A stretch of 64,000 bases of DNA from Yuukianura sp. NJ FZ-2021 (GCA_046563655.1 CM102289.1:4774001-4838000); one strand, 5' to 3'; positions 1-34,219 are shown, counted from the first letter of the stretch. Numbers and translations: made by a program. The notes: a model not told the origin generated them from the sequence alone.

Positions 1-3000
1 TGTCCTTACAGAACAAACTCTTTGCACCCAAATTCAACTACATGGGGTTCTACCTCGTGCGACTGGACTCCGCCATTGAAGAACCATCTCTAGTTGACGA
101 CTGGGAAGATCATATGCGAATCTATAGGGATGATTTAAAATGGCTACTCGGACTTCCTCATCACAAGTTCTGGTCGGCACTTGTTTATTCGGAGCCAATT
201 TCTCAGCATGTTCTCACGTCGTATCTCATCCAAGCGCCACGGCCGCATGAGCACAGCTACAAGGAATACTTTGCTCACTCGAGAATTGGCCCTCTCCTAG
301 CACAAATACATGATTTCGTTTTCAGAATTTTTTTACGTCTGTCAACCTTCAAAGAAACCAAGGTTAGGCCCTGATAATTGATTCACCTCGGGGTTGTTGG
401 ATTTGTTCAAGTTGGAACTCAATCGGTTTAATTTTGTGCTTTACAGGAGGATCACATCACACCCAGCAAATGGGCTACTCTCATCTACGACCACTACTTG
501 TTCGACGTGCCGAAGTTGTTTGATCTCGTTGTCCTTTACGGCTCTAGCCGAAAGCAAATCTTAACCAAGATGATTGACAATGTTCTTAGCCATCAACCAA
601 ATTATCTCCACGACTTCAGTGCAACTCTTCCCATTTACGTTGGAAAGTGGTTAATGCAAAGCGAGCAGCTAGGAAGCCTGGTGCGGAAACAAAAGCAGTT
701 CAGCAGCGGACAATGGGATTATACTGGCTTTGAAGACATCATTCTTTTCAATGTCGATCAAGCAATCTCGCTTTATAAGCTTATCGATATCCATCCTCCA
801 TTTGCCATTGCCGCTCATACAACATCTGAGTTCGAGGTCACGTAAGTTCCGTTTTGCCTTAAAATGCTGTATAATATTATGCTTCAGAATTTCTGGGTGA
901 TTTTTGTGTATTCAGAATCGGTGCCAGTTACGAGCAAGACGTCCAGGAGTGGAAGAAAGTTATTCAACACTTACCGCAGTTGGAAAGTCTTGTAAACACA
1001 TGGAGAGTTTACATGCTAAAACTTTTCCGACTTGTACTGGCGTCTTCGACGATTCAAACTGTTGAGAGACCTCAAAAGTACGTTCTTACATCGACCTTCT
1101 GTCTATAAACGTTGTATCTAAGGATTTTTTTTTTATTTTAGTGGTGCTGTGGATGAGTTCCTGGGAGTTATTTCCAACTGTTTGGAGTCATGCATCTTTT
1201 TATATGACTATGACAAAACATTTCCTTTTGCCGCAGATATAGATGAACTACGTCGCAGAGGAGTTTATGTGTAAGTTAACTCAACCATTCTATTCGGCTG
1301 TATGCTGTTTTTCTTAATTTCAACGATGTCTTTACACTTTACCGTTCGAAATGCTATTACGTTGGTTAGCATTTTAGTAATTGAACCCTTTCCCTCTCGG
1401 GAAGGGTTCAATAACCTAACCTAGAATTGTAGAATTGTAACACCGTCAAATCGCACGCTCCGAATTGAAAAATCCTGAAGTTACGTTGTGGCTCCTTGTT
1501 AGCCTATGACTTGTTAGCCCAGGTTGTAATGCTTATGTCAACTGAAGAGTACGTGGTACAATCACTCTCTCACCCTAAACCTCTTCTCTTTTACAGAGAT
1601 TCGACCCGGGTAGAATATCTTTCGAACGCTGTTGCAGCAGCATATGAAGCGTGCGGACAGCGATATCAAGCTGCAAAAGTAGAAGTACCTGACACAGTCC
1701 CTGACCCTCTGAACGATCCAACGTTTGACAGGCAACTTCTAGGAGCATGCTCTCTCGATGTGGTTGGTCCTGAACTTATTTCTCTCGTCTCTCAAGTCAA
1801 GGATTTGTTACCTGATCTACCAGACGCTTACATAGAGGTACACTCATTACTGAATACAAAAGTTTACCGAGAAATTAAAGTTATACTTTCTTATTTCATA
1901 GGCATGTTTGAAACACTTTGGATATCAAACGGAGACTGCTATAAATGCTATTCTGGAAGGCTCGGTGCCAACCCACTTAGAAAAGTTTAAGGAGACCAGA
2001 CTTGAGCCAGTTCTTAAGCTGGACAAAGATGCAATGGAAATGGAACTGCTGTACAGAAGGTGTTATTGAAAATTGAGTTATCGACTCCGCCTTAAGTAGT
2101 GTTTTAAATATTTGTGGTTTGATGTGAACGACAGGAGAGATGCCATTCAAGATTTGCTTCCCTCTCGAGACGTAAAGCAACGGGTCCTAGAATGTTATGA
2201 AGCTCAAGAGATGCGGAAATGGACGAATGCTGAGGAAGAGAGACCGGACGATTATCTACACAAGTCACTTCTTCCAGCGTTTCGGGAGGACATTGAATAT
2301 CAAGATGAATATGACGATACATATGATGAAGGTAAGAAAAAATAACCTTTTGGTGTGCTACTTTTGGTGAATTATTGGGGTCTGCTAAGATTGGAGAATG
2401 TAAAAGCACATTGTGCTTTGTGCATCGCATTTTAACCGAAAACATACATCTCTTGTAAAATCACTTTTCATTTCCGCAATATCTTTAACAAAAATGTCAA
2501 TGTTAGTAGACGGGTACTCACTCAATTTCTTTCCATCATAATATTGCATGTAAATGGAAAGCGTTGTGTTGTATACAATCGCGACGCTTTGGACAACATT
2601 TAGAACATCGTTGAATATTTTCAACAACTAGCACAAAGTCGCCCTTCCATACGCATATTTTTCGATGATGCAAAAGCATCGTATTACTATCCGTATTACT
2701 ATTACTATCCGGAACAAGTTGTTACGCAACTTCTTCCCAATTTAGTAATTTAATTACTCATCCACTAAACGTGAGCAATACCACCTTGACTTTCATTTAG
2801 AAACTTAACGCTTGCGAATTTAGAATCCAAGCTTCAAATTCCGAGCTTTTGCGAAACTCGCGATGAGATAAGTTGTAAGAACACCCTTAAACAAATTTTT
2901 CGTGTGTCTTTTACTGTGTTATACGCTTCGACGAGATTGAACACCACCAACACAGTCTGGTTTTTGATTCTCCCGTCTTATCTAGTACACCTTAAGTAGT

Positions 3001-6000
3001 ACTTTGTAAGATAAGGAAATTTCGTAGTGGTTAAATTAAGGGACTTCTCTTCCGCTCTAATTTGTAAACCCAACCTTTTCCGTTCCTATCCTTACGTTTT
3101 TCCCGGGCCCTTAGCAGTTTCACCTTAGAAGGGGGTTTCTTCCCTTCCAAGGGCCGACCGGTCACTCAAGGTCACGACTTGACCCCCTTTTTACCTCTGG
3201 TAGTAGCAGAAAGAATTTGGCCTCAGTTGATCAGCTACTCCAGCCCGTTATTGATCTCGAGTACTCCAGCCCGAAAATCCAGAATAATCCCGCACCCCAG
3301 TGCCGCACCAACCAACTCCAAACGAACCGAACCAACCAGTACTTACTACCAATAATTCATGCCGCGGTACACAGCAATTTTAGGGGTCACCAACCCCGTG
3401 ACATGAGACTGAGATGTTGTGAGTTCAATTCCAAACAACAAAAAGAGAAAACCGCGCCGCGCCGCTTTACCGCGCTCAACTCGCTAAGTTAATGTGAAAA
3501 CCAATGAGAAAACCAAATGAGAAAAACTCTAATTGAAACCAAACGTGAATCTCTAATTGAAAACCAGTTAATTGAACGGTAAAATGAAACGGTAAACGAA
3601 ACGGTACTTTACAGAAAACGAAACGGTATGAAACGAAAATGTCGAACCCTAAACCGACAGAGTAACAACCCTAACCAACTCTCCCGGGATCGCCACACGG
3701 AGAGGAACCTCAGCAGCAGGCGGGTATCCCGACCACAATCTGCCCATCCACCAACAAGCCCCCGAGTGCATGGAAGATAGCCTGTAGCTGCCTTCTCCCA
3801 TGGAAAAGGCACTCTCAACCATGTACTCCTTTCCCAATTTTAAACAACAAAGGAGAACAGCAGCTGATACTAAATGTGCTTAGTACTAATCAACTTTCTT
3901 CTAGGAGTTGATTAGTACTAAGTTTAAAACGATTCGGAGTCCCTAACTTCAATTAAAATTCGATTAATTAGTTGTGGTTGAGTTTGTGTTTTTTCCTGGC
4001 TTTTGACTTGGAAGTGAAAAGATGAGAAGTGGAAGAGTTGTCCCTACAGTACCAATAGAGGGCGCGCGCTTCTCCCTTTCTTATGAACATGACGCTATTT
4101 TTGCAGTCTCACAACATCCCCCCTCACAAAGCCACGAAGCGGTCAGTACACTTCTTATTCAACATTTTCTCTCCCTGACCCGACTTCCCATTTCCATTCT
4201 GAAGTATTTACAAGAATTCTTACGTTCTAGATTTAACTTGAAGTTTAACATTTTTTTAAAATCAAAAGAAAAATTAATTTTTAATTTAACTATGGGGACA
4301 AAAATCATTTAGGACGAAAGCGAAAAAATTAGAAGGGAGGGATTCCAGTAGTAAGTGATCCAAAGTCCAATCCAGTTCAAAATTACAGGCAGAAGCCTCC
4401 AGGGTCTTCTCCATCCGCCGTTACTCGTCCAGACAACAGTCTCCGTTTCTGGCGGCCATCTTTCCATTTCCAGTCCACATCCAGTTGCATCTTTCCTCGG
4501 AAAGGCCAAGTCCCATCTCTTTTCCTCTGCACGAATCCATCATTGGGGAAACGCGCCTGTGTCGTAGTCAAATCCAGGTTTACTCGCTTCCTCCTGTCCA
4601 TGTCCAACTGAGTTGTCTGGAACTCAGAGAAAAGACGAGCATTAGAGTCATAATCGGGTTTGTCATTTATTTCATTTAATTTTACGCGCCGCTGGCGTTG
4701 CGTGCGTTTGTCCACTACTCTTTCGCAACACGGTTCAATGCAGGACAGTGACATGACAACTACTTCGGAATCTGTGATAGCCTCGGTACTGCCGACAGTC
4801 ACTTCTGCCCAGTCTTCCCAATGTTCAACTTCTGTGGCGATGCATTCTTCAGAATTACAGCCAAAAGTCCCAGTAATCTCTTGCCAAACTTCAGAAGTGT
4901 TGTCGCCCAATGCCGCCGTTCCAAACTGACAATGGCTTTCTTCTGGAGGATCCAACGAACATGAAACTTCCGTCTCTCGAATCAGAGTTTCCGAAGCAAC
5001 TTCGTCTTGGCTCGATGAGAGGCTAGTGCAATTCTCAAAGGCATCAATCAGTCCACAGTATTCAAACCCCGAATCTTCCAAAGATTCTTGCTCCATGTCC
5101 ATTCCAGTATCAAACGTCGAAGAGTGAGAAGCGAGAACCACCGTCGTGCCAGACTCCTGGGTCTGCGCATGAGTACGAGGCTCATCACCGCCCTTCCAAT
5201 CATTTCCTACAGTAGGGCGCTCACTCGTGATTCCCTTGTAGATCCCACTCTGATTTTCCGAAGACATAGGAGCAAACGATACCGAAGACGAATCGTCAAC
5301 GTACGAGTCCACAGGAACTGCCAGTTCCCTTGGGTCAATACCATTCCCCCTCTGCCTTGAAAACCTTTGAGAAGCCCCACCAAAACTTGACCTCTCCCTC
5401 TGACCTCGAGACTTCCATCCATGCCTGTCAATCCATCCAGAATCAGCGTCTGTGGAATGGTTGCTCCCATGGTAGGAGAGTCCAGGGTCAATGACATTGC
5501 CTGTTGTTGGCTCGTGGTACATGTTGTCCAGAGCGATTCTTCTTTCAACTTCCTCGGCTGCTTTGTACAGCTCCCTTGTGTCTGCAAAGCGTTGGCCGAT
5601 CCATCTGAGTCTGTCTCTTGATTCTGGGTTCATCAGTTCAATGACCTGCATGACCTTCTGTTCTTCACTTGGTGAAAATTCCAGCTTGTCGAAGAGTGAG
5701 CACATTGTCAGCACATAATCGGTCAACTTTTCTTCTCTGCCTTGGTAGCGATCCAGAAGTGCTCTCTTCAGCTCATATTGGTAATTCGGGTGTTCAAACT
5801 TGCGTCGGAATTCGGAACGAAACGTACTCCAACTGTCCAGGATCTTGAAGATGAACTGATACCAAATGGCAGCCATTCCTGAGAATGCTACTGGCAAGAC
5901 TTGCTCCATCATGTCCTCTTCGCAGATTCCCCAAACCTGCATGTACCGTTCCAGTTTCAGCAAATACTCGTACGGTTGTACGCAGTAGCTTCCATCAAAC

Positions 6001-9000
6001 TTCGGCAGAGGGCAATCTCTCCGATTCAGTATCTTCCGATCCACTTGCGGTACTTTGTCAGCCATTTTTGTCCGGGTCACTGCCTCAGCACAACCATTTT
6101 TCTGTACTTTACGCCTGCGCCCGCTCTTTTCCATCTTTGTATTTAATTTTAACTTTAACTTTGATTTTGCGCGCGTAGTGGACAAATCATCGTTTGGATT
6201 TGAACTCTGACATCTCTTGTTACTGACCGATCTACCGCCTAAGGGTTTCCCGTCTGAGCCCCCATGTTGTAAGATACGATTTTTCCAGTGGCCAATTAAG
6301 GGCTACAAATCCGGCTCTAATCTGAAACCCGCCCTTTCCGTTCGCTATCCCTTACGTTTACTTGACGGGCCCTTAGTAGTTTCACCTTAAGAAAGGGTTT
6401 CTTCTTTCTTAAGGGCCGATAGAAGGCACTTCACACTCCAGAAGGGTCAACAACCTGAGAATTTGCACGTAGACTTGGCCTCTCTCCTCGCAGTCCAGTG
6501 ACCTTGACCTCTGACCTTTGACTTTCGACTCCGACAGAGAAAATGACAACTCGATTCGTGAAACCGTTAACCAATCAGAAAGCTCTCCAGTTAATCAATC
6601 TTAATTGCTAGGTGACCGAAAACTCCAATTAACTCCAATTAATGACTCGTTAAGTTGAAATGAGATAAAAGAAATTGAGAAATTCCAGAAGTCAGCTGAT
6701 TCGAAGATAAATAAACGTAAACACGAATAACCTTTGACCCAATTGAATGTGTGAGCAAAACAGAGTTCAAATACCAGAGACAATCCTAATTAGAAAACCC
6801 GCGTACGCGTGCGTAGCGTTAATTGATTGAATTAATTGAGAAAAACCGATAAAAACTGAATTAAACTGAGGAAAACTGATTTGAAACCGATTTAAATTGA
6901 TGGAAAACTGATTTAAAACAATTACAATTTAATGCGCGTTGAGTGAAACAAAAAGGAAATTGAATTACGCGCAGTTCCCGTCACTGAAGGTGAACAAAAG
7001 AACAAGAAAACCGAAACGCCAAGAAAACGCGTAAACTTTAACGACGAAAACGACTTTAACGACGAAAAAGACTTTAACGTGAAACTTTAAGTGGTTCTCC
7101 GGATCACCCCGAGCAACCAAACCCTGGGCAGTATGCTGGAAGCCAGCAACACCCTGCCAATACCTGTAGTAGTCCCCGGTCGTCCTTCGAGCATCAATTC
7201 AGCAGCGTTTCCCCCTGGTTTACTGTGTACTGGAAAAGGCATGCCTGGCAGTGGAAAGGCAGGCCAAGGTCTCCTTTCTAGGCCAAAAGGCATGCTTGTC
7301 CATGCACATTGAACCATTAATTAAGGTAGTTTAGGTAGTTGATAGGTAACGGAACTTTAGTGATTTAAGTAGATTAGGATTTTAGTTAATTTTTAGGATA
7401 GTTTAGTTTTAGGTAATTAGCGTTAATTAGTTGGATAATTAGTTTTAAGTTTTGTCTATCTGTTTGCTTGGAAAAGTACTGGGTGCTGCGGCGGTAAAGT
7501 GCGGGAACAGTTTTGGTTTAAATTTGAGTGAAATCTTTCCAGAGGTTTCACTCAAATTCTCACTAGATGGCGTATGCCGTCCAGGGCTCTTTGTGAAGTG
7601 ACGCTCTGTTTTTTGTGCTCTCACAACTTCCCCCCTCCAATTGGCCCGAAAGTCATCGTGTTGAGAAATATTATTTAGCAGACTCTAATACTATTTACAA
7701 AGTAACTGTGACTCTAAATTGTTTGGAAAAATTTAAGTATTTCTTACTTAGAACTGAATTTATAATTGAATAAATTGAAAAACTTGAAGAATCCTCTTGA
7801 GTACTAACGTAGAAGGCAAGGAAACAAGATAGAATTAATTTGAAAAATGACCATTAACTGGAAAGGAAACGATGTCTTCAATCGTCTTCATCCGAGTCCT
7901 TGAACCCAAATTTCTCCTTCTTCATCATTCGAATTTTTCCATTGATCCTGAAGTTATCTCTACCCTCTTTCTCCAGAATCTCCACTCCCTCGAGTTGAGT
8001 CAGCGTCTCAATTCCACGGTGGAGTGCAGGATGAAGGAAGGCGCTGACTCCATCGCCGAAGTTCCACTTCTCCAGAAGGTCATCATCTGCAACGTCGGCT
8101 CGGGAAAGCTTCGGAGGTCGTCTGGGAGTCTCAGCCTGGGTCATACCCTTCTCCTTCTTGATTCTCACCCATGGAATGATTGGGGCCACTTCTGGAACTT
8201 CTAGGCGAGTGATCGGGGCTTCTGGGCGAGTGATTGTGGCCTCGGGCTTCTTCTTTGGAGGAGACTTGGAAGTTCTCGGGGCCGTCATTGGAACTGGAAG
8301 ATCGGCTGAAGTAATGGTGGATGATGGAATCTGCTTCACCGGAACTGACAACTTGGACTGAACTGTCTTTGAGTTTTTCGCTGTGGTCAACTTGAGGGGC
8401 TGAGCAAAGAGGTCGAACTGTGGAGGACTTGGAGAACGACCTCGAGCTTTCTTGGCAATCTGCCTCCGTTCCAGTGCTGCCTTCTGCTTCGCCATTTGAG
8501 CTGTGGCTGACAATTTGGCTGGCTTTTGCTGCTCTAGTTCTTCCTTCCGCTTCTTCTCCAGAAATTCGTCCATGTTCACAAGTGCTTCCACCTGTCTCTC
8601 CTTGGGAACTCCGAACTTCAGCCAGGTATTCATGGGAGCATCTTCTTGTTTCTGCTTCTGTTCTGCCTCGAAAACATCCATGATTTTCTGAACTTGACGG
8701 ATTGGAAGTCCTTGGCTGCGTTTCTTTGGTGGTTCGTATTTCTTCGGCGGAATGTAAGGCCGATCTGTCGTAACCCAAGCTGGAGCTCGCACTGTCAAGT
8801 CTCTCTTGTAGACATCTTTGCCTGGTTCGTTGGAGAAGGAGATCGAGATCACACCTGGGTCGATACAGAAGGAAGGAGGACGCTGAAGCCAGTGGTCGTC
8901 CATTGTTTTGAAATTGAAATTTTGGACTTTGATTGTCCCCGTCTGCCATCTGGGATTTCTCGCAGTGTTGAAGGCATCGGCCTTTTTCGCATCTCGAAGT

Positions 9001-12000
9001 GCTGAGGATCGGCTCACAAATTTGTGTTTCTTCGGAGGAGGAGCGTAGTACGTTGGAAGAATTGGCGGTGGAGGTTGAGGCTGGGACTGGCTCGGATTCA
9101 CTGGGAATGCAATCGGAGGTGGCTCTCGTGTCGGCACTGGTGGAATTGCCAAGTCCCCGAGTCGAATTCCCCCGACAATCATGTTCGGATCCAGATTGCT
9201 CATTCTGGAAGCAACAATAGAAAGGTCGGCAATCAGAAACATGGACTTCACCAACAAATTCGTTCGCGCCAATTGAGTTTAACATTAGGATTGTCTCATT
9301 TTTCTTTCCCGCGACAACAAAAGGACCTTCGAACTTGTTCATGAGAGACGCAGTGATTCCTTTCGCAGCGTTCGACAACACCCTTGATTTACGCAGAATC
9401 AAATCTCCAATCTCATAAGTCACTTCTTTTCTCTTTTTGTTGTACTGTGACATGTACTCTTTTTGAGAAGAAAGTTGATTAGCTTTCGCCAATTCCCAAA
9501 CGTAATTCATTCTCTCTGCCATTTCCTGAGTGTCACTACTTTGACCACCCGGAATTTCCAAAACATTGTCAAACGGAGTTCTCAACTCCCGTCCAAAATT
9601 TAAGTAAGCTGGTGAGAATTTCATGGTTTGATTGACACTTGAATTGAGCGCGAAGCTCAATTCTGCCAAGTATCTGTCCCATTCTTTACATTTTTCGATA
9701 GTCGCAACTATCATTGACTTTAAAGTTTCGTTGTATCTCTCAGTCACATTAGGTTGAGGATGATAAGGTGGAATGAAGAGAGCGTTTACACCAAAAGATT
9801 TGCAGAAGTCCTTGTACACGTTACTTTTCCCGAATGCTGGTCCGTTATCGGCGACAATTGTGGAAGGAAATCCCCAGCGACAGAAAACTTGCCAAAGTTT
9901 CTTTGTTACGACGTCTGCTGTTCCGCTTCGCAGAGGAAAGAGTTCGACCCATTTTGTGAAGTTGTCAACGACGACGAGAAGAAACTTGTTCTGAAAAGAA
10001 CTTCTGGTGTAAGGGCCCATCAAATCAATGTAGAGGTTTTCCCACGGCCGCTTGACTTTTGGAGATGTTCCGAACCCTGCTGGCTTGACTTTCCAGGCTT
10101 TTGCGAGTTGGCAGTCTTCACAACTTTTGACGAAATTTTGAGTGTCTTTGCGCATGGACTTCCACCAGACTCTTTTCTCCAACTTCAAGTAAGTTTTCGA
10201 CGTTCCAAGATGACCACCGATTTTGCTGGAATGAAAATGACGCAGGCAAGTCTCTCTGAGTGAATGTGGAATCCAAAGTCGCCAATGGGTTCCGTCGTCT
10301 TCCCACGGACAGTGAATGTTCCCAATGTACTTGTACAAACAGCCAGATTCGTCAACAAAAGCGGATTCTGCGCGGCGGACAATGTAGTTGTTGTGGTCTC
10401 TGGAGTTCGTAGCCGGCAATTCTTCGTTCTTCAAAAATTTGATGATTGGACCCAGTTCTGCGTCTTGAATTTGTGCATGAGCTAGTTCGTCTTTGTTCGG
10501 AATGTAGTCGGATTCAAGCGTGAGGACTTCGAAGGCACGGGAAAGAGCATCTGCTGTTCGATTCAGAGCGCCTGACCGGTACTTGATCTGATACTTATAG
10601 CCTTGGAGCTCAAGAGCCCACCTAGCCAATCGTCCCGTCGGTTCTTTGATTTTCTGCAGCCACGTCAGCGCTTGATGATCGGTTTCGATTGTGAATTCGG
10701 TAAATTCCAGGTACGCTTTGAATTTCTTGACGGCGTAGATTACGGCGAGACATTCCTTCTCTGTGATGGAGTAATTCAGCTCTGCCCCGTTGAGCTTCCG
10801 GCTGATGAACCAAACTGGAGATCTTCCTTGTTCTGTCTCTTGTAATAGTACTGCACCGATTCCGAGCCCACTGGCATCGCATTGAATTGAAAATGGTTTG
10901 GACAAATCTGGTAGACTGAGTTCGACTTGTGACTGGAGTGTTTTCCGCAAATAATCAAAGCCCTCTTGGCATTCTTTAGTCCATTTGAAAGTTTCAGACT
11001 TCCGAAGAAGTTTAGAAAGTGGAGCAGCTTTAATGGAGAAATCAGGGACAAACTGGCGATAGTATCCAGTGAATCCCAAAAATCTTTGAATGTCTTTAAC
11101 GTTTCGAGGAATTTGATAATTCGTTAAGGCTGAGACTTTGTCAGGGTGGGGACGACATTTGCCCGCCTCAATGACATAGCCAAGAAAGTCAATTTCAGAT
11201 TTACAAAACGCTACTTTTTTCGGATTTATGGTAAATCCTGCTTCAAACATTGTTTTAAAGAAAGCACGTAGATGAATCATGTGTTCTTCTACCGTCTTTG
11301 AGAAAACCAAGAAATCATCGAAAAATCCAAGGACACAATTAAATCTCAACTTGTCCATCACCATGTCCATGGCTCTTTGGAACGTTGCCGGGGAGTTTTT
11401 CATCCCTTGTGGCGTTCTTTTAAATTGGTACAGACCCCGAGGGGTAATGAAAGCTGTCTTAGGCCGGTCCTCGACCGCCACACCGATTTGAAAAAACCCA
11501 TCTGAGAGATCAAACTTTGACATTACGTGACCTTGAGAGAGATAACAGAGAATGTCGTCTATTCTTGGCATTGGGTACTTGTCGTCCTTCGTGACCGCAT
11601 TAACTTCTCGGTAGTCCACACAGAACCGGAAACTGCCGTTCTTCTTTGGAGTCAGTAGCACGTGGGAGGCCCAAGGACTTCTCGCAGGCTCCACCAAGTC
11701 GTTCGCAATCAGTTTGTCAAGTTCGTCCAGCAAAATGTCTCGTTTAACTGAGGTCATAGGGCGAGGGTGACAGAAAATCGGTTTCGCGTCTCCAGTGTCG
11801 ATTCGGTGCTCAAAGACAGAACAGAAACCCGGCTTCTTCGTGAAAATACTGGAAAAATCTGAGATAATTCCCCGCAGTTCCCTCGAGTGATCAACCGGAA
11901 GGTCAACGCCCTTCATTAAGTCGTCGATTAGTTCAACATTCTCAAGACCCTCAGACAAGGAGCACTCCAAAAGCTCATCTCCCTCATCTAAACCACAATT

Positions 12001-15000
12001 TGAGAACGGCATGTCCAACAGACCATTGCCCGGACCACCTGACAACTCCAACGACGAAGAGTGGGAATCGGAGACCACCGTCGTGCCAGACTCCTGGGTC
12101 TGCGCATGAGTACGAGTCACATCACCGCCCTTCCCAACATTTCCTACAGTAGGGCGCTCACTCGTGGTCCCCCTGTTGAGCCCACTCCGACTACGAGACG
12201 ACTTTGTTTTTGGTTTGACCTGACTTGGAAGATTCTTTGGGTCTGAATCGAATGCAGTTTCGGATTTTGAAAAAGAAAACTTGGGCTGGTCATCACTCCC
12301 GATCAACCACCCAGAAGGAAAAACCCCAGCGTTAAACTTTGAAAGAAAATCTCTGCCCAAGACCACAGAACGAGACAAATTAGGACTAACGACAAAATGC
12401 TGCTTACACTTTCCTCCCTGCCACTCCACCGTGAGGTCAACTGCTTCATCTGTGATGAATGTACCCGCCGCCTGACGAATAGAATGAGGAGATTTTAGAA
12501 GACGAATGTTGAATGTTTTAACGAGATGCAAAATTTGACCTCCCACAAGTGAAATTGAAGATCCGGTGTCTAACAAAGCTTCGAAGGCCTGATTCAGAAT
12601 TTTAACAGAAACTAATGGTGGAGAATTCTCTACTTCGGTACTCAAAGATTCGGCTGTATTGCAATTTGAAACGGAATTGGTAAGATGATCTGGAGCTACG
12701 GAAGTTAGGAGATTTCCCCGGATCGGAGCTGGAGTTATTGCTGACCCGGGGTTTTGCCGTTTCCCGAGGGCAACGACTGTGACGTACTTTGAAGCTTTGG
12801 ACAGTCTCGGCGCCAATGCCCGGATTCCTTGCAGTTGAAACAGTGTTGAGAATTGTTCGGAACTTCGGCTCCTGTGCCATTGATACTGGGTCTCATGTCC
12901 GGAGGCAAGAGACGGTCGTAGGCTGGTTTGAAAACTTGAGTGGTGCGAGGAACGAAGCTGTTTGTCGGAAGAATGCTGTTCTGTTGTGCTGGAGCCCTTG
13001 GTTGCTCTGTTCTTGGTGCCGAATTGGTAACTGGCAAGTCCTGAGTCTGCGCAGGCTTGGATTCTGGACGCTGTCCCTGAGTTTGGTAGTTTTGCGTACC
13101 CTGAGTACTCTGATTTTGATAGCGGGGAGCATGATCTCTGCGAGGCTGTCCACGATTGTCGTCTTGTCGGTGCTGGCTCTGTTCCGGTTTCGCAAAGGCC
13201 AGTCCTGGATCAATGTGAGAAAATGTCGCCGGCTCCTTGTAGGCCCTGTCCTGCTCGATGCTCTTCTCCACGTTGCATGCTTCTTGGTAAAGCTCCATTG
13301 TAGTTCGGTAACGTTTTCCAGTTTGTTCAAGTCTGCGACGAGAATCTGGGTGTAGAAGTGTCCAAATATTTTTGAGAATCTCTTCTTCCGGTGGACAGAA
13401 GGTCAGCTTGTTGTAGAGATTGCGCATGGCCAGAATGTAGTCAGTGAGTCGCTCCTCCTTCCCTTGGTACCGGTCCAGAATGGCCTTGGAGAGTTGACGC
13501 TGGAAATCGGCTGGTTCGAACTTGTTTCGGAATTCTCGACAGAAATCCGTCCAAGTAAATAACCGATGACAAATGAAGCGATACCACGTGGAAGCATCTC
13601 CCTCCATGGAAATGGGCAGAACCAAATCCAGCATCTGCTGCTCTGACAACTCCCTACTCTTTTGAAATTTTTTGAGCTCCAAAATGAAATCGTACGGCTG
13701 AACCCTGTCCTTACTACCTCTGTACTTTGGAACCTTAATGTCGCCTCCCTTCAACACATTCCCTGACTTGGACGGTCGCCTGGCCGAAGAATCCCGACGG
13801 CAACGACTCGAGGGTTCATCGTCACTCGAAAGTTCATCCGAATTCCCCTCGGTAAAGACTCGAGACGGATTCCGCGACTCAGCAACCGGAAGTGACAAAG
13901 AAGCCAACTGTGCCATCATTGTTTTCAAATCATCTTTAAGTTCATTAACTCCGGAGAGTTGTTCTTTAAGTTTGTCCATGTCTTTGCGCATGGCATCGAC
14001 GGCTTTTAATTCAGAAACGTGAGTGTCAACAACTGGTTGTTCTTTAGGTATACACGGAGGTGGTGTACTTTGTCGACTGCGCGAACCTCTGCGTGATTCT
14101 CTCTCCTGACTCTCCCCCTCCTCAAAGTCAACGCTCGCCCTGGCCCTTTTGTTCTTCTTTCCTCGCGGCGCCATTTTTGTATTGTTACTTCCGCTTTTGC
14201 TCAATCAGTTCCTTCTATCTACTACTCAAGGATTTCCCGTCTGAGCCCCCATGTTGTAAGATAAGGAATTTTCGTAGTGGTTAAATTAAGGGACTTCTCT
14301 TCCGCTCTAATTTGTAAACCCCCTTTTCCGTTCCTATCCTTACGTTTTTTCCCGGGCCCTTAGCAGTTTCACCTTAGAAGGGGGTTTCTTCCCTTTCAAG
14401 GGCCGACCGGTCACTCAAGATCACGACTTGACCCCCTTTTTACCTCTGGTAGTAGCAGAAAGAATTTGGCCTCAGTTGATCAGCTACTCCAGCCCGTTAT
14501 TGATCTCGAGTACTCCAGCCCGAAAATCCAGAATAATCCCGCACCCCAGTGCCGCACCAACCAACTCAAACGACTCGAACCAACCAGTACTTACTACCAA
14601 TAATTCAAATGCCGCGGTACACAGCAATTTTAGGGGTCACCAACCCCGTGACATGAGACTGAGATGTTGTGAGTTCAATTCCAAACAACAAAAGAGAAAA
14701 CCGCGCCGCGCCGCTTTACCGCGCTCAACTCGCTAAGTTAATGTGAAAACCAATGAGAAAACAAATGAGAAAAACTCTAATTGAAACCAAACGTGAATCG
14801 CTAATTGAAAACCAGTTAATTGAACGGTAAAATGAAACGGTAAACGAAACGGTACTTTACAGAAAACGAAACGGTATGAAACGAAAATGTCGAACCCTAA
14901 ACCGACAGAGTAACAACCCTAACCAACTCTCCCGGGATCGCCACACGGAGAGGAACCCTCAGCAGCAGGCGGGAATCCCGACCACAATCTGCCCATCCAC

Positions 15001-18000
15001 CAACAAGCCATCCGAGTGCATGGAAGAGAGCCTCTTACTGCCTTCTCCCATGGAAAAGGCACTCTCAACCATGTACTCCTTTCCCCATTTTAAACAACAG
15101 AAGAAAACAGCAGCTGATACTAAATGTGCTTAGTACTAATCAACTTTCTTGTGGGAGTTGATTAGTACTAAGTTTGAAATGATTCGGAGTCCCTAACATT
15201 AATTAAAATTAGATTAATTAGTTGTGGTTGTGTTTGTGTTTTTCCTGGCTTTTGACTTGGAAGTGAAAAGATGAGAAGTGGAAGAGTTGTCCCTACAGTA
15301 CCAATAGAGGGCGCGCGCTTCTCCCTTTCTTATGAACATGACGCTATTTTTGCAGTCTCACAACATCCCCCCTCACAAAGCCACGAAGCGGTCAGTACAC
15401 TTCTTATTCAACATTTTCTCTCCCTGACCCGACTTCCCATTTCCATTTTACAGTATTTACAAGAAATCTTAAATTCTAGATTTAACTTGAAGTTTAACAT
15501 TTTAAAAAATCAAAAGAAAAATTAATCTTTAATTTAACTATGGGGACAAAAATTCATTTAGGACGAAATTCGAAAAATTTACAAAGGAGGGAATCCAGCA
15601 GTAGGCAATCCAAAGTCCAATCCAGTTCAACATTACAGGCAGAAGCCTCCAGGGTCTTCTCCATCAGCAGTCACTCGTCCAGACAACAGTCTCCGTTTCT
15701 GGCGGCCATCTTTCCATTTCCAGTCCACATCCAGTTGCATCTTTCCTCGGAAAGGCCAAGTCCCATCTCTTTTCCTCTGCACGAATCCATCATTGGGGAA
15801 ACGCGCCTGTGTCGTAGTCAAATCCAGGTTTACTCGCTTCCTCCTGTCCATGTCCAACTGAGTTGTCTGGAACTCAGAGAAAAGACGAGCATTAGAGTCA
15901 TGATCGGTGATGTCATTTGTTTCATTTAGTTTTACGCGCCGCTGGCATTGCGTGCGTTTGTCCACTACTCTTTCGCGACACGGTTCAATACTGGACAGTG
16001 ACCTGACAACTACTTCGGAATCTGTGATAGCCTCGGTACTGCCATCAGTCACTTCTGCCCAGTCTTCCCAATGTTCGATTTCTGTGGCGATGCATTCTTC
16101 GAAATTGCAGTCAAAAGTCCCAGTAATCTCTTCCCACACTTCAGAAGTGTTGTCGCCCAATGCCGCCGTTCCAAACTGACAATGGCTTTCTTCTGGAGGA
16201 TCCAACGAACATGAAACTTCCGTCTCTCGAATCAGAGTTTCCGAAGCAACTTCGTCTTGGCTCGATGAGAGGCTAGTGCAATTCTCAAAGGCATCAATCA
16301 GTCCACAGTATTCAAACCCCGAATCTTCCAAAGATTCTTGCTCCATGTCCATTCCAGTATCAAACGTCGAAGAGTGAGAAGCGAGAACCACCGTCGTGCC
16401 AGACTCCTGGGTCTGCGCATGAGTACGAGGCTCATCACCGCCCTTCCAATCATTTCCTACAGTAGGGCGCTCACTCGTGATTCCCTTGTAGATCCCACTC
16501 TGATTTTCCGAAGACATAGGAGCAAACGATACCGAAGACGAATCGTCAACGTACGAGTCCACAGGAACTGCCAGTTCCCTTGGGTCAATACCATTCCCCC
16601 TCTGCCTTGAAAACCTTTGAGAAGCCCCACCAAAACTTGACCTCTCCCTCTGACCTCGAGACTTCCGTCCACGCCTGTCAATCCATCCAGAATCAGCGTC
16701 TGTGGAATGGTTGCTCCCATGGTAGGAGAGTCCAGGGTCAATGACATTGTCTGTTGTTGGCTCGTGGTACATGTTGTCCAGAGCGATTCTTCTTTCAACT
16801 TCTTCGGCTGCTTTGTACAGCTCCCTTGTGTCTGCAAAGCGTTGGCCAATCCATCTGAGTCTGTCTCTTGATTCTGGGTTCATCAGTTCAATGACCTGCA
16901 TGACCTTCTGTTCTTCGGTGTTTGGAGATTCAAGCTTGTCGAAGAGTGAGCACATTGTCAGCACATAATCGGTCAATCTTTCTTCTCTGCCTTGGTAGCG
17001 ATCCATCAGTGCTCTCTTCAGCTCACGTTGGTAATTGGGATGCTCGAACTTGCGTCGGAATTCGGAACGAAACGTACTCCAACTGTCCAGGATCTTGAAG
17101 ATGAACTGATACCAAATGGCAGCCATTCCTGAGAATGCTACTGGCAAGACTTGCTCCATCATGTCCTCTTCGCAGATTCCCCAAACCTGCATGTACCGTT
17201 CCAGTTTCAGCAAATACTCGTACGGTTGTACGCAGTAGCTTCCATCAAACTTCGGCAGAGGGCAATCTCTCCGATTCAGAATCTTGCGATCCACTTGCGG
17301 TACTTTCTCAGCCATCTTTGTGCGGGTCACTGCCTCAGCACAACCATTTCCCTGCACTTTACGCCTGCGCCCGCTCTTTTCCATCTTTGTATTTAATTTT
17401 AACTTTGACTTTGAATTTACGCGCGTAGTGGACAAATCATCGTTTGGATTTGAACTCTGACATCTCTTGTTGCTGACCGATCTACCGCTTAAGGATTTCC
17501 CGTCTGAGCCCCCATGTTGTAAGATAAGGAAATTTCGTAGTGGTTAAATTAAGGGACTTCTCTTCCGCTCTAATTTGTAAACCCAACCTTTTCCGTTCCT
17601 ATCCTTACGTTTTTCCCGGGCCCTTAGCAGTTTCACCTTAGAAGGGGGTTTCTTCCCTTTCAAGGGCCGACCGGTCACTCAAGATCACGACTTGACCCCC
17701 TTTTTACCTCTGGTAGTAGCAGAAAGAATTTGGCCTCAGTTGATCAGCTACTCCAGCCCGTTATTGATCTCGAGTACTCCAGCCCGAAAATCCAGAATAA
17801 TCCCGCACCCCAGTGCCGCACCAACCAACTCCAAACGAACCGAACCAACCAGTACTAACTACCAATAATTGACATGCCGCGGTACACAGCAATTTTAGGG
17901 GTCACCAACCCCGTGACATGAGACTGAGATGTTGTGAGTTCAATTCCAAACAACAAAAGAGAAAACCGCGCCGCGCCGCTTTACCGCGCTCAACTCGCTA

Positions 18001-19092
18001 AGTTAATGTGAAAACCAATGAGAAAACCAAATGAGAAAAACTCTAATTGAAACCAAACGTGAATCGCTAATTGAAAACCAGTTAATTGAACGGTAAAATG
18101 AAACGGTAAACGAAACGGTACTTTACAGAAAACGAAACGGTATGAAACGAAAATGTCGAACCCTAAACCGACAGAGTAACAACCCTAACCAACTCTCCCG
18201 GGATCGCCACACGGAGAGGAACCCTCAGCAGCAGGCGGGAATCCCGACCACAATCTGCCCATCCACCAACAATCCACCCGAGTGCATGGAAGAGAGCCTC
18301 TACCTGCCTTCTCCCATGGAAAAGGCACTCTCAACCATGTACTCCTTTCCTAATTTTAAACAACAGAGGAGTACAGCAGCTGATCTAATTGTGCTTAGTA
18401 CTAATCAACTTTCTTCTGGGAGTTGATTAGTACTAAGTTTGAAATGATTCGGAGTCCCTAACATTAATTAAAATTAGATTAATTAGTTGTGGTTGAGTTT
18501 GTGTTTTTTCCTGGCTTTTGACTTGGAAGTGAAAAGATGAGAAGTGGAAGAGTTGTCCCTAAACTACCAGTAGAGGGCGCGCGCTTCTCCCTTTCTTATG
18601 AACATGACGCTATTTTTGCAGTCTCACAACTTGACTGTTTTATTTGTTGTTTATGTATTGTAGCTGGAATGGGAATGACGGAACCGGATGCAATGCCTTT
18701 AAATCATAAACTACAACCTCGATATAATGACGAAGAAGGAAGCGACGATGAAGCTGAGGCGAATGGAAAATCTGGTGGATTTGAGGCGTTTGTGGAAGAC
18801 CCAGCAATTGTCCGCGCGAGGATGGAGCAGAGGCGAGCTGACAAGTACAATAGAGGTCGAGGTCAGAGGAATCCCGGACAATTTCAAAGGGATGTCGTGG
18901 GTAAGTCGGATTGCCATTTGATATATCGCAGTTTTGTATTTGTTCTTTGTGTATGCCAGTATTTCTTCTTTACCAGGAGTGGCGAAAGGTCATGGCCAAA
19001 GTGCTGAAGTTGTTCACAACCGTCGTAGGAAAGACGAAGCGGGAAGCCACAATCGTCGGAGGGGAGCTGATTTCAAGCGTAGAGAGTTCTAA
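1..19092 (+). CDS. ASCC2: Activating signal cointegrator 1 complex subunit 2 (CUE domain), multi-exon, 5' end outside the window; the intron 2332-18663 holds the retroelement array
   Basis: Motifs WLLGLPHHKFWS, FLRLSTFKE, FDVPKLFDL, CUE-like LVSQVKDLLPDL and YQDEYDDTYDE (exon ends 2331, G|gtaag). Splicing to the acceptor at 18663 restores the frame (EAGMG...FVEDPAIVRARMEQRR). Last exon 18977-19092 reads GVAKGHGQSAEVVHNRRRKDEAGSHNRRRGADFKRREF*, matching the ASCC2 C-terminus pattern. Confidence 0.9.
3005..4113 (-). repeat. LTR type A, copy 1 (3' LTR of the array)
   Basis: TGTAAG...TCTCACA, about 1.11 kb, alignable to 14255-15362 and 17518-18628; PPT adjacent at 4114-4125. Confidence 0.95.
4114..4125 (-). 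promoter_or_regulatory. Polypurine tract (further PPTs at 7626-7638 and 15363-15374)
   Basis: Minus strand GAGGGGGGATGT, or GGAGGGGGGAAGT at 7626-7638, immediately 5' of an LTR. Confidence 0.85.
4383..6134 (-). CDS. Gag-only ORF of the non-autonomous element, copy 1 (capsid domain plus acidic extension; no CCHC, PR, RT or IN)
   Basis: First ATG at 6134 (frame open from 6185). Retrotransposon capsid motifs PKFDG..QPYEYL, AAIWY, WSTFRSEFRRKF, DRYQGREEKLTDY, homologous to the Gag at 12735-14174. Confidence 0.85.
   Translation of the reverse strand: MEKSGRRRKVQKNGCAEAVTRTKMADKVPQVDRKILNRRDCPLPKFDGSYCVQPYEYLLKLERYMQVWGICEEDMMEQVLPVAFSGMAAIWYQFIFKILDSWSTFRSEFRRKFEHPNYQYELKRALLDRYQGREEKLTDYVLTMCSLFDKLEFSPSEEQKVMQVIELMNPESRDRLRWIGQRFADTRELYKAAEEVERRIALDNMYHEPTTGNVIDPGLSYHGSNHSTDADSGWIDRHGWKSRGQRERSSFGGASQRFSRQRGNGIDPRELAVPVDSYVDDSSSVSFAPMSSENQSGIYKGITSERPTVGNDWKGGDEPRTHAQTQESGTTVVLASHSSTFDTGMDMEQESLEDSGFEYCGLIDAFENCTSLSSSQDEVASETLIRETEVSCSLDPPEESHCQFGTAALGDNTSEVWQEITGTFGCNSEECIATEVEHWEDWAEVTVGSTEAITDSEVVVMSLSCIEPCCERVVDKRTQRQRRVKLNEINDKPDYDSNARLFSEFQTTQLDMDRRKRVNLDLTTTQARFPNDGFVQRKRDGTWPFRGKMQLDVDWKWKDGRQKRRLLSGRVTADGEDPGGFCL
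6247..6264 (-). promoter_or_regulatory. Primer-binding site, tRNA-Pro-like (identical copies at 14234-14251 and 17497-17514)
   Basis: TGGGGGCTCAGACGGGAA, 3 nt after the LTR end; TGGGGGCTC is complementary to the 3' end of eukaryotic tRNA-Pro (..GAGCCCCCA). Confidence 0.8.
6268..7625 (-). repeat. LTR type B (about 1.36 kb, single copy)
   Basis: TGTAAGATA...CTCTCACA, flanked by a PBS and a PPT. Alignable to LTR-A only over about 150 bp at the PBS-proximal end and about 60 bp at the PPT-proximal end. Confidence 0.88.
7033..7091. repeat. Short tandem repeat (about 19-bp unit ACTTTAACGACGAAAA.G, about 3 copies) inside LTR-B
   Basis: Seen directly. Confidence 0.75.
7878..9203 (-). CDS. ORF3 of the autonomous element: 441-aa Pro/Lys-rich protein of unknown function at the env position, not Env-like
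   Basis: ATG at 9203, one nt after a branch point-pyrimidine tract-CAG acceptor; intact frame; no signal peptide or transmembrane stretch visible. Confidence 0.75.
   Translation of the reverse strand: MSNLDPNMIVGGIRLGDLAIPPVPTREPPPIAFPVNPSQSQPQPPPPILPTYYAPPPKKHKFVSRSSALRDAKKADAFNTARNPRWQTGTIKVQNFNFKTMDDHWLQRPPSFCIDPGVISISFSNEPGKDVYKRDLTVRAPAWVTTDRPYIPPKKYEPPKKRSQGLPIRQVQKIMDVFEAEQKQKQEDAPMNTWLKFGVPKERQVEALVNMDEFLEKKRKEELEQQKPAKLSATAQMAKQKAALERRQIAKKARGRSPSPPQFDLFAQPLKLTTAKNSKTVQSKLSVPVKQIPSSTITSADLPVPMTAPRTSKSPPKKKPEATITRPEAPITRLEVPEVAPIIPWVRIKKEKGMTQAETPRRPPKLSRADVADDDLLEKWNFGDGVSAFLHPALHRGIETLTQLEGVEILEKEGRDNFRINGKIRMMKKEKFGFKDSDEDD
8131..12765 (-). CDS. pol: Ty3/Gypsy Pol (PR-RT-RH-IN), reached by -1 frameshift from gag, with a long C-terminal extension overlapping ORF3
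   Basis: PR LLDTGSS; RT FCVDYREVN..LGFFDDFLV; RH QCDASGLGIG..TEKECLA..TDHQAL; IN H-x6-H..C-x2-C, IDLMGP, VADNGPAF, ERYN, GPF. Domain order is Gypsy-type; no internal stops. Confidence 0.95.
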   Translation of the reverse strand, partial: GKRQNPGSAITPAPIRGNLLTSVAPDHLTNSVSNCNTAESLSTEVENSPPLVSVKILNQAFEALLDTGSSISLVGGQILHLVKTFNIRLLKSPHSIRQAAGTFITDEAVDLTVEWQGGKCKQHFVVSPNLSRSVVLGRDFLSKFNAGVFPSGWLIGSDDQPKFSFSKSETAFDSDPKNLPSQVKPKTKSSRSRSGLNRGTTSERPTVGNVGKGGDVTRTHAQTQESGTTVVSDSHSSSLELSGGPGNGLLDMPFSNCGLDEGDELLECSLSEGLENVELIDDLMKGVDLPVDHSRELRGIISDFSSIFTKKPGFCSVFEHRIDTGDAKPIFCHPRPMTSVKRDILLDELDKLIANDLVEPARSPWASHVLLTPKKNGSFRFCVDYREVNAVTKDDKYPMPRIDDILCYLSQGHVMSKFDLSDGFFQIGVAVEDRPKTAFITPRGLYQFKRTPQGMKNSPATFQRAMDMVMDKLRFNCVLGFFDDFLVFSKTVEEHMIHLRAFFKTMFEAGFTINPKKVAFCKSEIDFLGYVIEAGKCRPHPDKVSALTNYQIPRNVKDIQRFLGFTGYYRQFVPDFSIKAAPLSKLLRKSETFKWTKECQEGFDYLRKTLQSQVELSLPDLSKPFSIQCDASGLGIGAVLLQETEQGRSPVWFISRKLNGAELNYSITEKECLAVIYAVKKFKAYLEFTEFTIETDHQALTWLQKIKEPTGRLARWALELQGYKYQIKYRSGALNRTADALSRAFEVLTLESDYIPNKDELAHAQIQDAELGPIIKFLKNEELPATNSRDHNNYIVRRAESAFVDESGCLYKYIGNIHCPWEDDGTHWRLWIPHSLRETCLRHFHSSKIGGHLGTSKTYLKLEKRVWWKSMRKDTQNFVKSCEDCQLAKAWKVKPAGFGTSPKVKRPWENLYIDLMGPYTRSSFQNKFLLVVVDNFTKWVELFPLRSGTADVVTKKLWQVFCRWGFPSTIVADNGPAFGKSNVYKDFCKSFGVNALFIPPYHPQPNVTERYNETLKSMIVATIEKCKEWDRYLAELSFALNSSVNQTMKFSPAYLNFGRELRTPFDNVLEIPGGQSSDTQEMAERMNYVWELAKANQLSSQKEYMSQYNKKRKEVTYEIGDLILRKSRVLSNAAKGITASLMNKFEGPFVVAGKKNETILMLNSIGANEFVGEVHVSDCRPFYCCFQNEQSGSEHDCRGNSTRGLGNSTSADTRATSDCIPSESEPVPASTSTANSSNVLRSSSEETQICEPILSTSRCEKGRCLQHCEKSQMADGDNQSPKFQFQNNGRPLASASSFLLYRPRCDLDLLLQRTRQRCLQERLDSASSSLGYDRSALHSAEEIRTTKETQPRTSNPSSSENHGCFRGRTEAETRRCSHEYLAEVRSSQGETGGSTCEHGRISGEEAEGRTRAAKASQIVSHSSNGEAEGSTGTEADCQESSRSFSKSSTVRPLCSAPQVDHSEKLKDSSVQVVSSGEADSIIHHYFSRSSSSNDGPENFQVSSKEEARGHNHSPRSPDHSPRSSRSGPNHSMGENQEGEGYDPG
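12716..12765 (-). promoter_or_regulatory. Programmed -1 ribosomal frameshift signal
   Basis: G GGA AAC heptamer (12765-12759) in the gag frame, 7-nt spacer, then stem CCCCGGGTC / GATCCGGGG; pol is in the -1 frame. Confidence 0.85.
12735..14174 (-). CDS. gag: Gag of the autonomous element (coiled coil, capsid, CCHC zinc knuckle)
   Basis: ATG at 14174; capsid motifs; CFNCKESGHWRRDC knuckle. Confidence 0.93.
   Translation of the reverse strand: MAPRGKKNKRARASVDFEEGESQERESRRGSRSRQSTPPPCIPKEQPVVDTHVSELKAVDAMRKDMDKLKEQLSGVNELKDDLKTMMAQLASLSLPVAESRNPSRVFTEGNSDELSSDDEPSSRCRRDSSARRPSKSGNVLKGGDIKVPKYRGSKDRVQPYDFILELKKFQKSRELSEQQMLDLVLPISMEGDASTWYRFICHRLFTWTDFCREFRNKFEPADFQRQLSKAILDRYQGKEERLTDYILAMRNLYNKLTFCPPEEEILKNIWTLLHPDSRRRLEQTGKRYRTTMELYQEACNVEKSIEQDRAYKEPATFSHIDPGLAFAKPEQSQHRQDDNRGQPRRDHAPRYQNQSTQGTQNYQTQGQRPESKPAQTQDLPVTNSAPRTEQPRAPAQQNSILPTNSFVPRTTQVFKPAYDRLLPPDMRPSINGTGAEVPNNSQHCFNCKESGHWRRDCPKLQSTSQSLPSGNGKTPGQQ
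14255..15362 (-). repeat. LTR type A, copy 2 (shared: 3' LTR of Gag-only copy 2 and 5' LTR of the autonomous element)
   Basis: TG...CA, PBS on one side and PPT on the other, no TSD. Confidence 0.95.
15633..17384 (-). CDS. Gag-only ORF of the non-autonomous element, copy 2
   Basis: Same length as copy 1 with about 30 amino-acid differences by eye; intact. Confidence 0.85.
   Translation of the reverse strand: MEKSGRRRKVQGNGCAEAVTRTKMAEKVPQVDRKILNRRDCPLPKFDGSYCVQPYEYLLKLERYMQVWGICEEDMMEQVLPVAFSGMAAIWYQFIFKILDSWSTFRSEFRRKFEHPNYQRELKRALMDRYQGREERLTDYVLTMCSLFDKLESPNTEEQKVMQVIELMNPESRDRLRWIGQRFADTRELYKAAEEVERRIALDNMYHEPTTDNVIDPGLSYHGSNHSTDADSGWIDRRGRKSRGQRERSSFGGASQRFSRQRGNGIDPRELAVPVDSYVDDSSSVSFAPMSSENQSGIYKGITSERPTVGNDWKGGDEPRTHAQTQESGTTVVLASHSSTFDTGMDMEQESLEDSGFEYCGLIDAFENCTSLSSSQDEVASETLIRETEVSCSLDPPEESHCQFGTAALGDNTSEVWEEITGTFDCNFEECIATEIEHWEDWAEVTDGSTEAITDSEVVVRSLSSIEPCRERVVDKRTQCQRRVKLNETNDITDHDSNARLFSEFQTTQLDMDRRKRVNLDLTTTQARFPNDGFVQRKRDGTWPFRGKMQLDVDWKWKDGRQKRRLLSGRVTADGEDPGGFCL
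17518..18628 (-). repeat. LTR type A, copy 3 (5' LTR of the array)
   Basis: TG...CA followed by the TSD ACTT. Confidence 0.95.
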
Positions 19093-33810: not shown

Positions 33811-34219
33811 AATTGTAGATAGTTTAGCCGCTGTTTCTGGTTATCGCGTCACTGTGGAACTCCACTAAGTAATGAACATTTTGTGGACGTTGGCTCGCCC
33901 GTCCGTACGTTTTCGCTCGATTCACTTTCTCCCAGTACTTGGAGGCAATGCTCGCCCCTGGCATAATGAAGCCGTAAACTGGAGATTGTATCATAGTGGG
34001 TTAGTGAATTGGTATCCAAATTTACAACAAACAAGAACATGTAATTTGACTTGCCACGACCTACACACGTCAAAGATCCGTAGTTGAAGCCACACGAAAC
34101 AAAGATCCGGCACGGCTTGGTTGTAGGCCAAGGAGGAGTGCCTTGTGGGTTGACTGGTAGTCTACTTCCCTGATGATCCCTCTCGACGCGAGCATTGATT
34201 GTGTATTCAAACACACCTA

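Follow-up and report, generated by a model that had tools for sequence, protein, structure and literature searches.

In a 64,000-nucleotide (nt) stretch of DNA from Yuukianura sp. NJ FZ-2021 (GCA_046563655.1 CM102289.1:4774001-4838000; this whole stretch is called the window below), the minus strand carries a Ty3/gypsy-type long terminal repeat (LTR) retrotransposon whose third open reading frame (ORF3) lies over an open extension of pol. This overlap of about 1 kb, read from the same strand in two frames, is the most unusual feature of the element. We give a probability of roughly 70% to the reading that ORF3 is a real gene within a dual-coding module maintained by selection. As to its parts, we are highly confident that ORF3 is a real coding gene, and we consider it very probable that the openness of the pol frame is selected. 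According to this reading, ORF3 would be a selectively maintained accessory gene of one Ty3/gypsy-type lineage, placed in the +1 frame over a pol extension of 311-357 codons that would itself be translated and kept free of stop codons by selection, leaving about 1 kb of the element dual-coding, or overprinted. ORF3 would be held as an amino acid sequence, and the pol tail would be held only to stay open, perhaps also in its composition. Translation of both frames is proposed here from sequence.

A third reading frame over an open pol extension

Read directly on the minus strand, ORF3 opened with an ATG at 9203-9201, ran for 441 codons and ended with a stop at 7880-7878 (7878..9203 in all), which bears out the frame given in the original prediction; an upstream in-frame ATG at 9242 gives an alternative ORF3 of 454 amino acids (aa). 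The conserved pol body (9205..12765, minus strand), identified by Pfam as protease, reverse transcriptase (RT), RNase H and integrase, ended in ...VHVSDCRPFYCCFQ. Past this integrase motif the pol frame remained open for another 357 codons, which encode a tail rich in serine, glutamate, arginine and glycine and extend down to a stop at 8133-8131 (tail and stop, 8131..9204, minus strand). Coordinate arithmetic placed ORF3 in the +1 frame relative to pol (12012-9203 = 2809 = 3x936+1), which is the frame of gag. Because ORF3 sits over the open pol tail, 1073 nt were open in two same-strand frames; the original prediction had overlooked this overlap.

A query consisting of the integrase and its tail retrieved 54 pol relatives. 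The best was the protein P0006, 69% identical over 949 aa and with about 330 aa of pol tail following the integrase, and the named relatives from springtail, firefly, crab, fishes and other sources were 42% identical or less. Among 33 alignable relatives, the integrase tail measured at most 97 aa in 27 and 120-153 aa in three, some of the short tails possibly being cut by contig ends; the three tails of at least 300 aa belonged to P0006, to P0038, which carries a chromodomain, and to P0013, which has an odd architecture.

Two related elements were compared with that of the window, namely the P0006-encoding contig (L001, 5313 nt) and a contig of 4338 nt that is 78% identical to P0006 in its best tblastn segment (L002). 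The pol frame of L001 was open to 4857, giving a tail of 329 codons, and a +1-frame ORF ran from an ATG at 3869 to 5023 (384 aa); that of L002 was open to 3886, giving a tail of 311 codons, and its +1-frame ORF ran from 2952 to 4052 (366 aa). In all three elements, ORF3 was the last ORF before the polypurine tract (PPT) and the LTR. The PPT/LTR junction, TTGGAGGGGGGGATGT joined directly to TGTGAG, lay about 190 nt after ORF3 in L001 and L002, and TTGGAGGGGGG...TGTGAG was present in the window as well. The ORF3 proteins of L001 and L002 were 55% identical to each other; that of the window matched L001 at 25% identity over 241 collinear aa (E 2e-7) and L002 at E 6e-7. Conserved among them were the start M-x-N...[ILV]VGGI[RQH]L, a KK cluster near residue 58 and a G-V-P in the helical region, and the final ~57 residues of the window protein had no counterpart in L001 or L002. 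Since homologous intact ORFs occupy the equivalent place in two related elements, ORF3 is more than a chance open frame.

Constraint on the two overlapping frames

Constraint was compared between L001 and L002 over 301 aligned overlap codons, and all pairwise values in this paragraph refer to these two elements. The differences at codon positions 1, 2 and 3 were 0.24, 0.24 and 0.49 when the overlap was read as ORF3, and 0.46, 0.25 and 0.26 when the same DNA was read in the pol frame. A similar distribution (0.29, 0.22 and 0.53) was found in the 55 ORF3 codons past the pol stop. Because the changes pile up at its third positions, ORF3 is indicated to be a coding frame under purifying selection. 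The overlap part of ORF3 showed 63% aa identity and a Nei-Gojobori ratio of nonsynonymous to synonymous substitution rates (dN/dS) of 0.18, the pol tail 41% identity and a ratio of 1.01, and the pol body 90% identity and a ratio of 0.05; dN/dS is biased in overlapping frames and was used for contrast only. As a control, the third frame, which contains stops, gave 41% aa identity. The constraint is thus asymmetric, ORF3 being held as sequence and the pol tail having the same identity as the control frame. Both the intact frame in the two sister copies and the coding-type substitution pattern, for which checks had been suggested in the original prediction, came out in favor of ORF3.

Codon usage was also compared with that of the non-overlapping genes, giving Spearman coefficients of 0.44, 0.41 and 0.33 for ORF3 and of 0.33, 0.23 and 0.19 for the tail, a difference that carries no significance figure. 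By the codon-usage logic for dating overlapping frames, as set out by Pavesi et al. (PMC3744397), the frame closer to the non-overlapping genes, here ORF3, points to the older one, and the tail therefore to the overprint.

Conversely, only the pol tail could be functional, as a long C-terminal extension of the integrase, with ORF3 being open by chance. When the tail protein was fixed and shuffled in reverse (3000 trials), the ORF3 frame stayed open in 3.5%, 6.7% and 2.6% of the shuffles, so the openness of ORF3 alone is not proof of the gene, and it is the substitution pattern that supplies the proof. Long integrase extensions do exist, such as that of 250 aa in the Gypsy_Ds1 element, as described in PMC7998251 (section 3.3). 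The substitutions, however, gather at the third positions of ORF3 and not at those of pol; beyond the pol stop, the ORF3s of the three elements remain open and homologous over a further 55-84 codons; the ATG and N-terminal motif are conserved, and the codon usage of ORF3 is nearer that of the rest of the element. We therefore regard a functional tail over a chance ORF3 as extremely unlikely.

The openness of the pol frame was assessed by a shuffle test in which the ORF3 protein and its codon usage were fixed, synonymous codons were shuffled and pol-frame stops were counted. The expected numbers of stops were 16.8, 12.4 and 13.2 for the window, L001 and L002, respectively, and the observed number was 0 in each; stop-free shuffles numbered 0/5000, and 0/3000 per element. 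A pol-frame stop requires an ORF3 codon ending in T followed by a codon starting with AA, AG or GA. Within the overlap, T-ending codons preceded such codons in 0/96, 0/84 and 0/83 cases (window, L001 and L002), compared with 14-24% in the gag and pol bodies of these elements and with 18%, 12% and 36% in ORF3 past the pol stop. Beyond that stop, the pol frame regained 6, 3 and 8 stops within 84, 55 and 55 codons. Dual-frame openness was thus beyond chance in all three elements by both the shuffle and the junction tests.

These data bear on the explanation that ORF3 is real and the open pol frame functionless, being a by-product of ORF3 composition or of codon-pair bias, so that pol ends in a dispensable read-on. 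It would agree with the aa identity of the tail, 41% as in the third-frame control, and with a mild depletion of T before AA, AG or GA already seen in single-coding genes (14-24% versus ~30%). It is opposed by the absence of T at all 263 at-risk junctions, for which the probability is <1e-6 per element at the control rate of 14-24%, by the return of stops at about one per 10 codons right past the pol stop within the same ORF3, and by the lack of any stop-free arrangement in the 3000-5000 shuffles per element. A functionless pol frame is therefore very improbable.

If the pol frame is selected to be open, the question is for what. A disordered appendage on the integrase, rich in serine, glutamate, arginine and glycine, would fit the constraint pattern. 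Codons ending in G before AA, AG or GA made up 48-54% in the overlap (8131-9203 in the window, 3869-4857 in L001 and 2952-3886 in L002) versus 26-33% in the control genes, and this enrichment favors glutamate and glycine over lysine, glutamine and arginine in the pol tail, faintly hinting that the composition of the tail is under selection. Alternatively, the frame may be open for the act of translation itself and not for the encoded protein, which we hold to be unlikely. In that case, the terminating ribosome would be carried about 1 kb further, to within ~500 nt of the 3′ LTR, and the shortened 3′ untranslated region (UTR) of the full-length RNA could protect it from nonsense-mediated decay triggered by long 3′ UTRs. 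This would explain why an unconserved tail lacks any stop in more than 300 codons and, in each of the three elements, terminates only close to where ORF3 does.

Expression and product of ORF3

The minus strand reads ...CATGTTTCTGATTGCCGACCTTTCTATTGTTGCTTCCAG A ATG into ORF3. The series described in the original prediction was found as given, that is, CTGAT, the pyrimidine tract CCTTTCTATTGTTGCTTC, CAG at 9207-9205, A at 9204 and the ATG (acceptor-like motif, 9205..9240, minus strand). All three elements had CTGAT, a pyrimidine run and CAG directly upstream of the ORF3 ATG; the acceptor-like sequence was CCTTTCTATTGTTGCTTCCAG/A, 1 nt before the ATG, in the window and CGCCCTTTCTTTCAG/G, 7 nt before it, in L001 and L002, and an A was present at position -3 of the ATG in each element. 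In errantiviruses, splicing yields the subgenomic RNA for env. ORF3 would most likely start at its own conserved AUG, with the A at -3, and its RNA would most likely be a subgenomic one that begins 1-7 nt ahead of the AUG, at the conserved pyrimidine-tract/CAG, in the manner of env and other ORF3s of LTR elements. Splicing is the usual route for the ORF3s of LTR elements according to a general statement in PMC5408684 (section 3.5). Judging from these motifs, we tentatively put expression of ORF3 from a spliced RNA at slightly under even odds.

Ty elements use +1 frameshifting, and ORF3 could likewise be reached by programmed +1 ribosomal frameshifting or other recoding at the integrase end, yielding a Pol-ORF3 fusion. 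ORF3 lies exactly in the +1 frame to pol, the ORF3 frame of each of the three elements opens 25 codons before the ATG, and the lack of a strong splice donor (see below) would suit this route; Ty frameshifting also counts toward it. However, the three elements all retain the ATG and its A at -3, the M-x-N...VGGI-x-L motif is conserved from that ATG, recoding does not account for a zero frame that stays free of stops over more than 300 codons past the shift site, and no shift-prone motif was identified. Expression by recoding at the integrase end is thus improbable.

The ORF3 protein proved to be Pro- and Lys-rich as predicted (P 14% and K 11%, counted across the 357 codons that overlap pol), with the sum K+R minus D+E at 23, 13 and 16 in the three ORF3s and several basic clusters. 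AlphaFold models of the window and L001 proteins had mean pLDDT (predicted local distance difference test) values of 47.5 and 54.2, and both placed a helix-turn-helix hairpin around the conserved G-V-P, at residues 168-252 in the window and 153-224 in L001, which was the only confident part (pLDDT 82-91 in L001). The charged helix noted in the original prediction is thus predicted at residues 168-252, whereas its two small, likely folded segments turned out to be low-confidence strands with pLDDT below 50. We consider the ORF3 product, as modelled, to be a soluble, basic and mostly disordered protein with a central helical hairpin, and not an envelope protein. Its net positive charge and basic clusters would fit an intracellular role as an adaptor or in binding nucleic acids; that it acts in the nucleus or binds RNA, as the same composition suggests, is possible but doubtful.

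A decayed remnant of an envelope gene was also considered, given that ORF3 sits between the integrase and the PPT, at the env position, and has a long helical segment. No signal peptide-like N terminus, transmembrane (TM) segment, furin site or Env family match was found in ORF3. The top Kyte-Doolittle mean over 19 residues was 0.8 in the window protein (0.5-0.8 in the three ORF3s), and none contained an R-x-K/R-R site, in line with the earlier statement that ORF3 lacks a TM helix and a furin site. No Pfam family matched any of the three copies, including the chromodomain PF00385 (E up to 1), which was absent also from the pol frame with its tail (P0005) and from the window ORF3 at E up to 0.1; ORF3 is thus neither an Env nor a chromodomain protein. 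In a profile search of the PDB, the top match was a low-complexity, proline-rich protein at E 0.04, and Foldseek versus PDB gave no fold match (best E 7.4). Moreover, the frame is under purifying selection and not decaying. The probability that ORF3 is an envelope remnant is accordingly minimal.

Further searches for homologues agreed that the protein is unrecognised, as the original prediction had proposed. A word-indexed protein search with ORF3 and a search with a profile of the three ORF3s each gave 0 matches with 8000 candidates scored, and an exhaustive phmmer search gave 0/1,835,955,588 sequences. A phage tblastn found no match; 360 pattern matches in a metagenome scan, and 25, 78 and 3 in scans of viral contigs, yielded 0 confirmed. 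The ESM Atlas returned no usable match for the window ORF3 and a top score of 0.77 for that of L001.

Several observations weigh against a selected dual-coding module whose ORF3 is spliced and active in the window. The layout was seen in three sequences only, two of them from one metagenome. Homology between the ORF3 of the window and those of the contigs is weak, a profile hidden Markov model of L001 and L002 giving the window ORF3 10.5 bits (E 0.013); in that set of 1001 sequences it outranked the 1000 shuffled controls, but the best of these scored 8.5 bits. Acceptor sites were scored on the sense strand of the element by a crude count (at least 10/14 pyrimidines plus YAG), by which the equivalent site reached 12/14 in L001, as one of three such, and in L002, as the sole such site. 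In the window, it was one of 19 sites and tied with seven others for the top score, 11/14. Of the 'textbook' acceptor claimed originally, the motif is therefore present and the adjective overstated for this copy. The conservation of the acceptor is also confounded, because the end of the integrase, conserved as H-V-S-D-x-R-P-F-(F/Y)-Q, is encoded by the identical bases. Around the motif, synonymous sites changed no less than in the rest of pol, which speaks neither for nor against a splice signal. No splice donor matched MAG/GTRAGT at 8/9 or better; five donor-like sites reached 7/9, and two of these fall within the final 120 nt of the LTR. Since the structure models are poor, 'disordered' is a soft statement, and since the two LTRs are not a matched pair, the activity of the window copy is uncertain.

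The carrying element, its surroundings and known parallels

The element met on the minus strand begins with a 5′ LTR at 14252..15362, delimited by self-BLAST and by its ends TGTGAG...TTACA(ACA), the 3′ boundary being uncertain by ~3 nt; the gag-only unit upstream uses this LTR in common with the full-length element. Next to the LTR end, a primer-binding site (PBS)-like sequence, TGGGGGCTCAGACGGGAA, which starts with TGG, was read at 14234..14251; no tRNA gene was found within the 64-kb window. The gag gene (12735..14174, 479 aa) matched Retrotrans_gag (PF03732, E 5.5e-8) and a CCHC zinc knuckle (PF00098, E 1.6e-6). Pfam domains in the pol frame (P0005) were RVP at 196-294, RVT_1 at 521-680, RT_RNaseH at 768-871, Integrase_H2C2 at 980-1038 and rve at 1061-1151. 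By coordinate arithmetic, pol lies in the -1 frame relative to gag and is open from 13209, a point 158 codons ahead of the gag stop. The -1 frameshift site into pol is likely, judging by its motif, to be G GGA AAC, a heptamer read in the frame of gag (12759..12765) and placed 30 nt before that stop. ORF3 is followed by an AT-rich spacer of ~240 nt, by the PPT GGAGGGGGGAAG (7627..7638) and by a divergent 3′ LTR starting with TGTGAG (6268..7625), recognized by self-BLAST and its LTR ends. The order protease-RT-RNase H-integrase in pol, the capsid-like gag with its CCHC knuckle, and the TG...CA LTRs with PBS-like sequence and PPT place the element in Ty3/gypsy.

The 5′ LTR was 97% identical, by self-BLAST, to 17480-18630 and to 3004-4115, the LTRs of flanking gag-only units, whereas it resembled the 3′ LTR only in the first ~28 nt (86%) and the last ~190 nt (80-82%). 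Because its LTRs are not a matched pair, the window copy is indicated to be a chimera. The gag-only units, at 3004-6419 and 14254-17670, were 95.6% identical to one another, and the identical PBS-like sequence followed all three internal LTR ends. The whole forms a minus-strand array of LTR, gag-only unit, LTR, gag-pol-ORF3, divergent LTR, gag-only unit and LTR (window 3001-18632). This 15.6-kb array is bounded on both sides by AAGT (18632-18629 and 3004-3001), a 4-base match expected by chance in 1 of 256 cases; the flanks may be the target-site duplication of one original insertion that was rearranged later. The two units contain second gag-like ORFs of 583 aa (4383-6134 and 15633-17384, minus strand), a 94% identical pair with a Retrotrans_gag match at E 6e-7. 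Their protein is ~42% identical to the gag of the full element and is fused to a stretch of ~80 aa that is 59% identical to the protease-RT linker of pol; the corresponding linker DNA is 89% identical (5110-5250 versus 12047-12187). Having LTR ends and PBS in common with the full element, these units look like a non-autonomous, internally deleted relative.

Elsewhere in the window, an ORF at 34384-34935 (minus strand), together with 33849-34394, reads ...TRAKR/GIFLALGILIAAALATTGIGLGG... and shows a furin-type site, a fusion-peptide-like segment and a heptad-like stretch. It resembles the transmembrane subunit of a retroviral-type Env, had no Pfam match, and may represent a real env-like gene. 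A DUF5641 fragment (Pfam E 1.4e-4) at 37590-38012 (minus strand) is of a type with which BEL/Pao integrases end, and it and the env-like ORF may be parts of one element. The window also contains an acetyl-CoA transporter exon at 29601-30107 (plus strand; Pfam Acatn, E 4.7e-41) and a leucine-rich repeat (LRR)-like ORF at 26888-27844. The exon marks the window as chromosomal DNA of a eukaryote, and the host is probably an animal.

The closest formal parallel is the polymerase of hepatitis B virus (HBV), whose spacer lies over preS/S. Both systems are reverse-transcribing and have a long same-strand stretch read in two frames, of 311-357 codons here and over the 400-aa S gene in HBV, in which one frame is a disordered, fast-evolving part of the polymerase and the other a separate protein. 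According to PMC9093120, the disordered and fast-evolving spacer is thought to have been overprinted on preS, codon usage suggesting that it came later, and the P/S overlap is called the longest of any animal virus. Codon usage here also suggests that the disordered part of pol is the later overprint. The systems differ in that the overlap here is at the C terminus of the integrase and there between the terminal protein and RT, in that the partner here is not a membrane protein, and in that the present case is known from sequence alone; there is no sequence relationship.

Among LTR elements, the env genes of errantiviruses and insect endogenous retroviruses (gypsy, ZAM) are likewise third ORFs between integrase and PPT with an acceptor-like site just upstream. 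ORF3 is likened to them by position and motif only; it has no envelope features and overlaps pol by ~1 kb rather than by a few codons. Non-env ORF3s are varied in invertebrate LTR elements, as in Vesta and Juno of bdelloid rotifers (Rodriguez et al. 2017, PMC5408684). The rotifer proteins, as described there, contain domains that can be recognised (GDSL esterase, DEDDy exonuclease, paramyxovirus-like F), whereas ORF3 here has none; the word 'overlap' is absent from the text of that article. The 250-aa stretch that follows the integrase in Gypsy_Ds1 of Darwinula stevensoni, mentioned above, contains a coiled coil, and by its published description it resembles our case as a long, helical or coiled-coil stretch after a GPY/F integrase module in an invertebrate gypsy element. 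It is described as an extension in one pol frame, whereas in our case the extension in the pol frame lacks conservation and the helical protein lies in the other frame. In the MDG1 group, sORF2 is an accessory ORF overlooked in env-less gypsy-type elements of Drosophila (Voichek et al. 2025, PMC11952523); it too was missed by standard annotation, but it is described as a short TM fusogen-like protein, unlike ORF3 with its 366-441 aa and no TM. Full-text literature searches found no long same-strand pol/ORF3 overlap in LTR retrotransposons, which is not proof that none is in print.

The finding gives gypsy-type elements an additional, orphan family of accessory genes and, in an LTR retrotransposon, an overlap of 311-357 codons, comparable in length to the P/S overlap of HBV. 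An open frame selected without conservation of its sequence makes the choice between a disordered integrase tail and translation as such testable. If translation as such were true, it would be a retroelement solution unlike the RNA stability elements of retroviruses. Gene callers cannot see the family, because ORF3 lies within the longer ORF of pol: the public protein of L001 (P0006) is pol only, and 0 ORF3 homologues were found among 1.84 billion representatives. Annotations of retroelements may commonly conceal genes of this kind.

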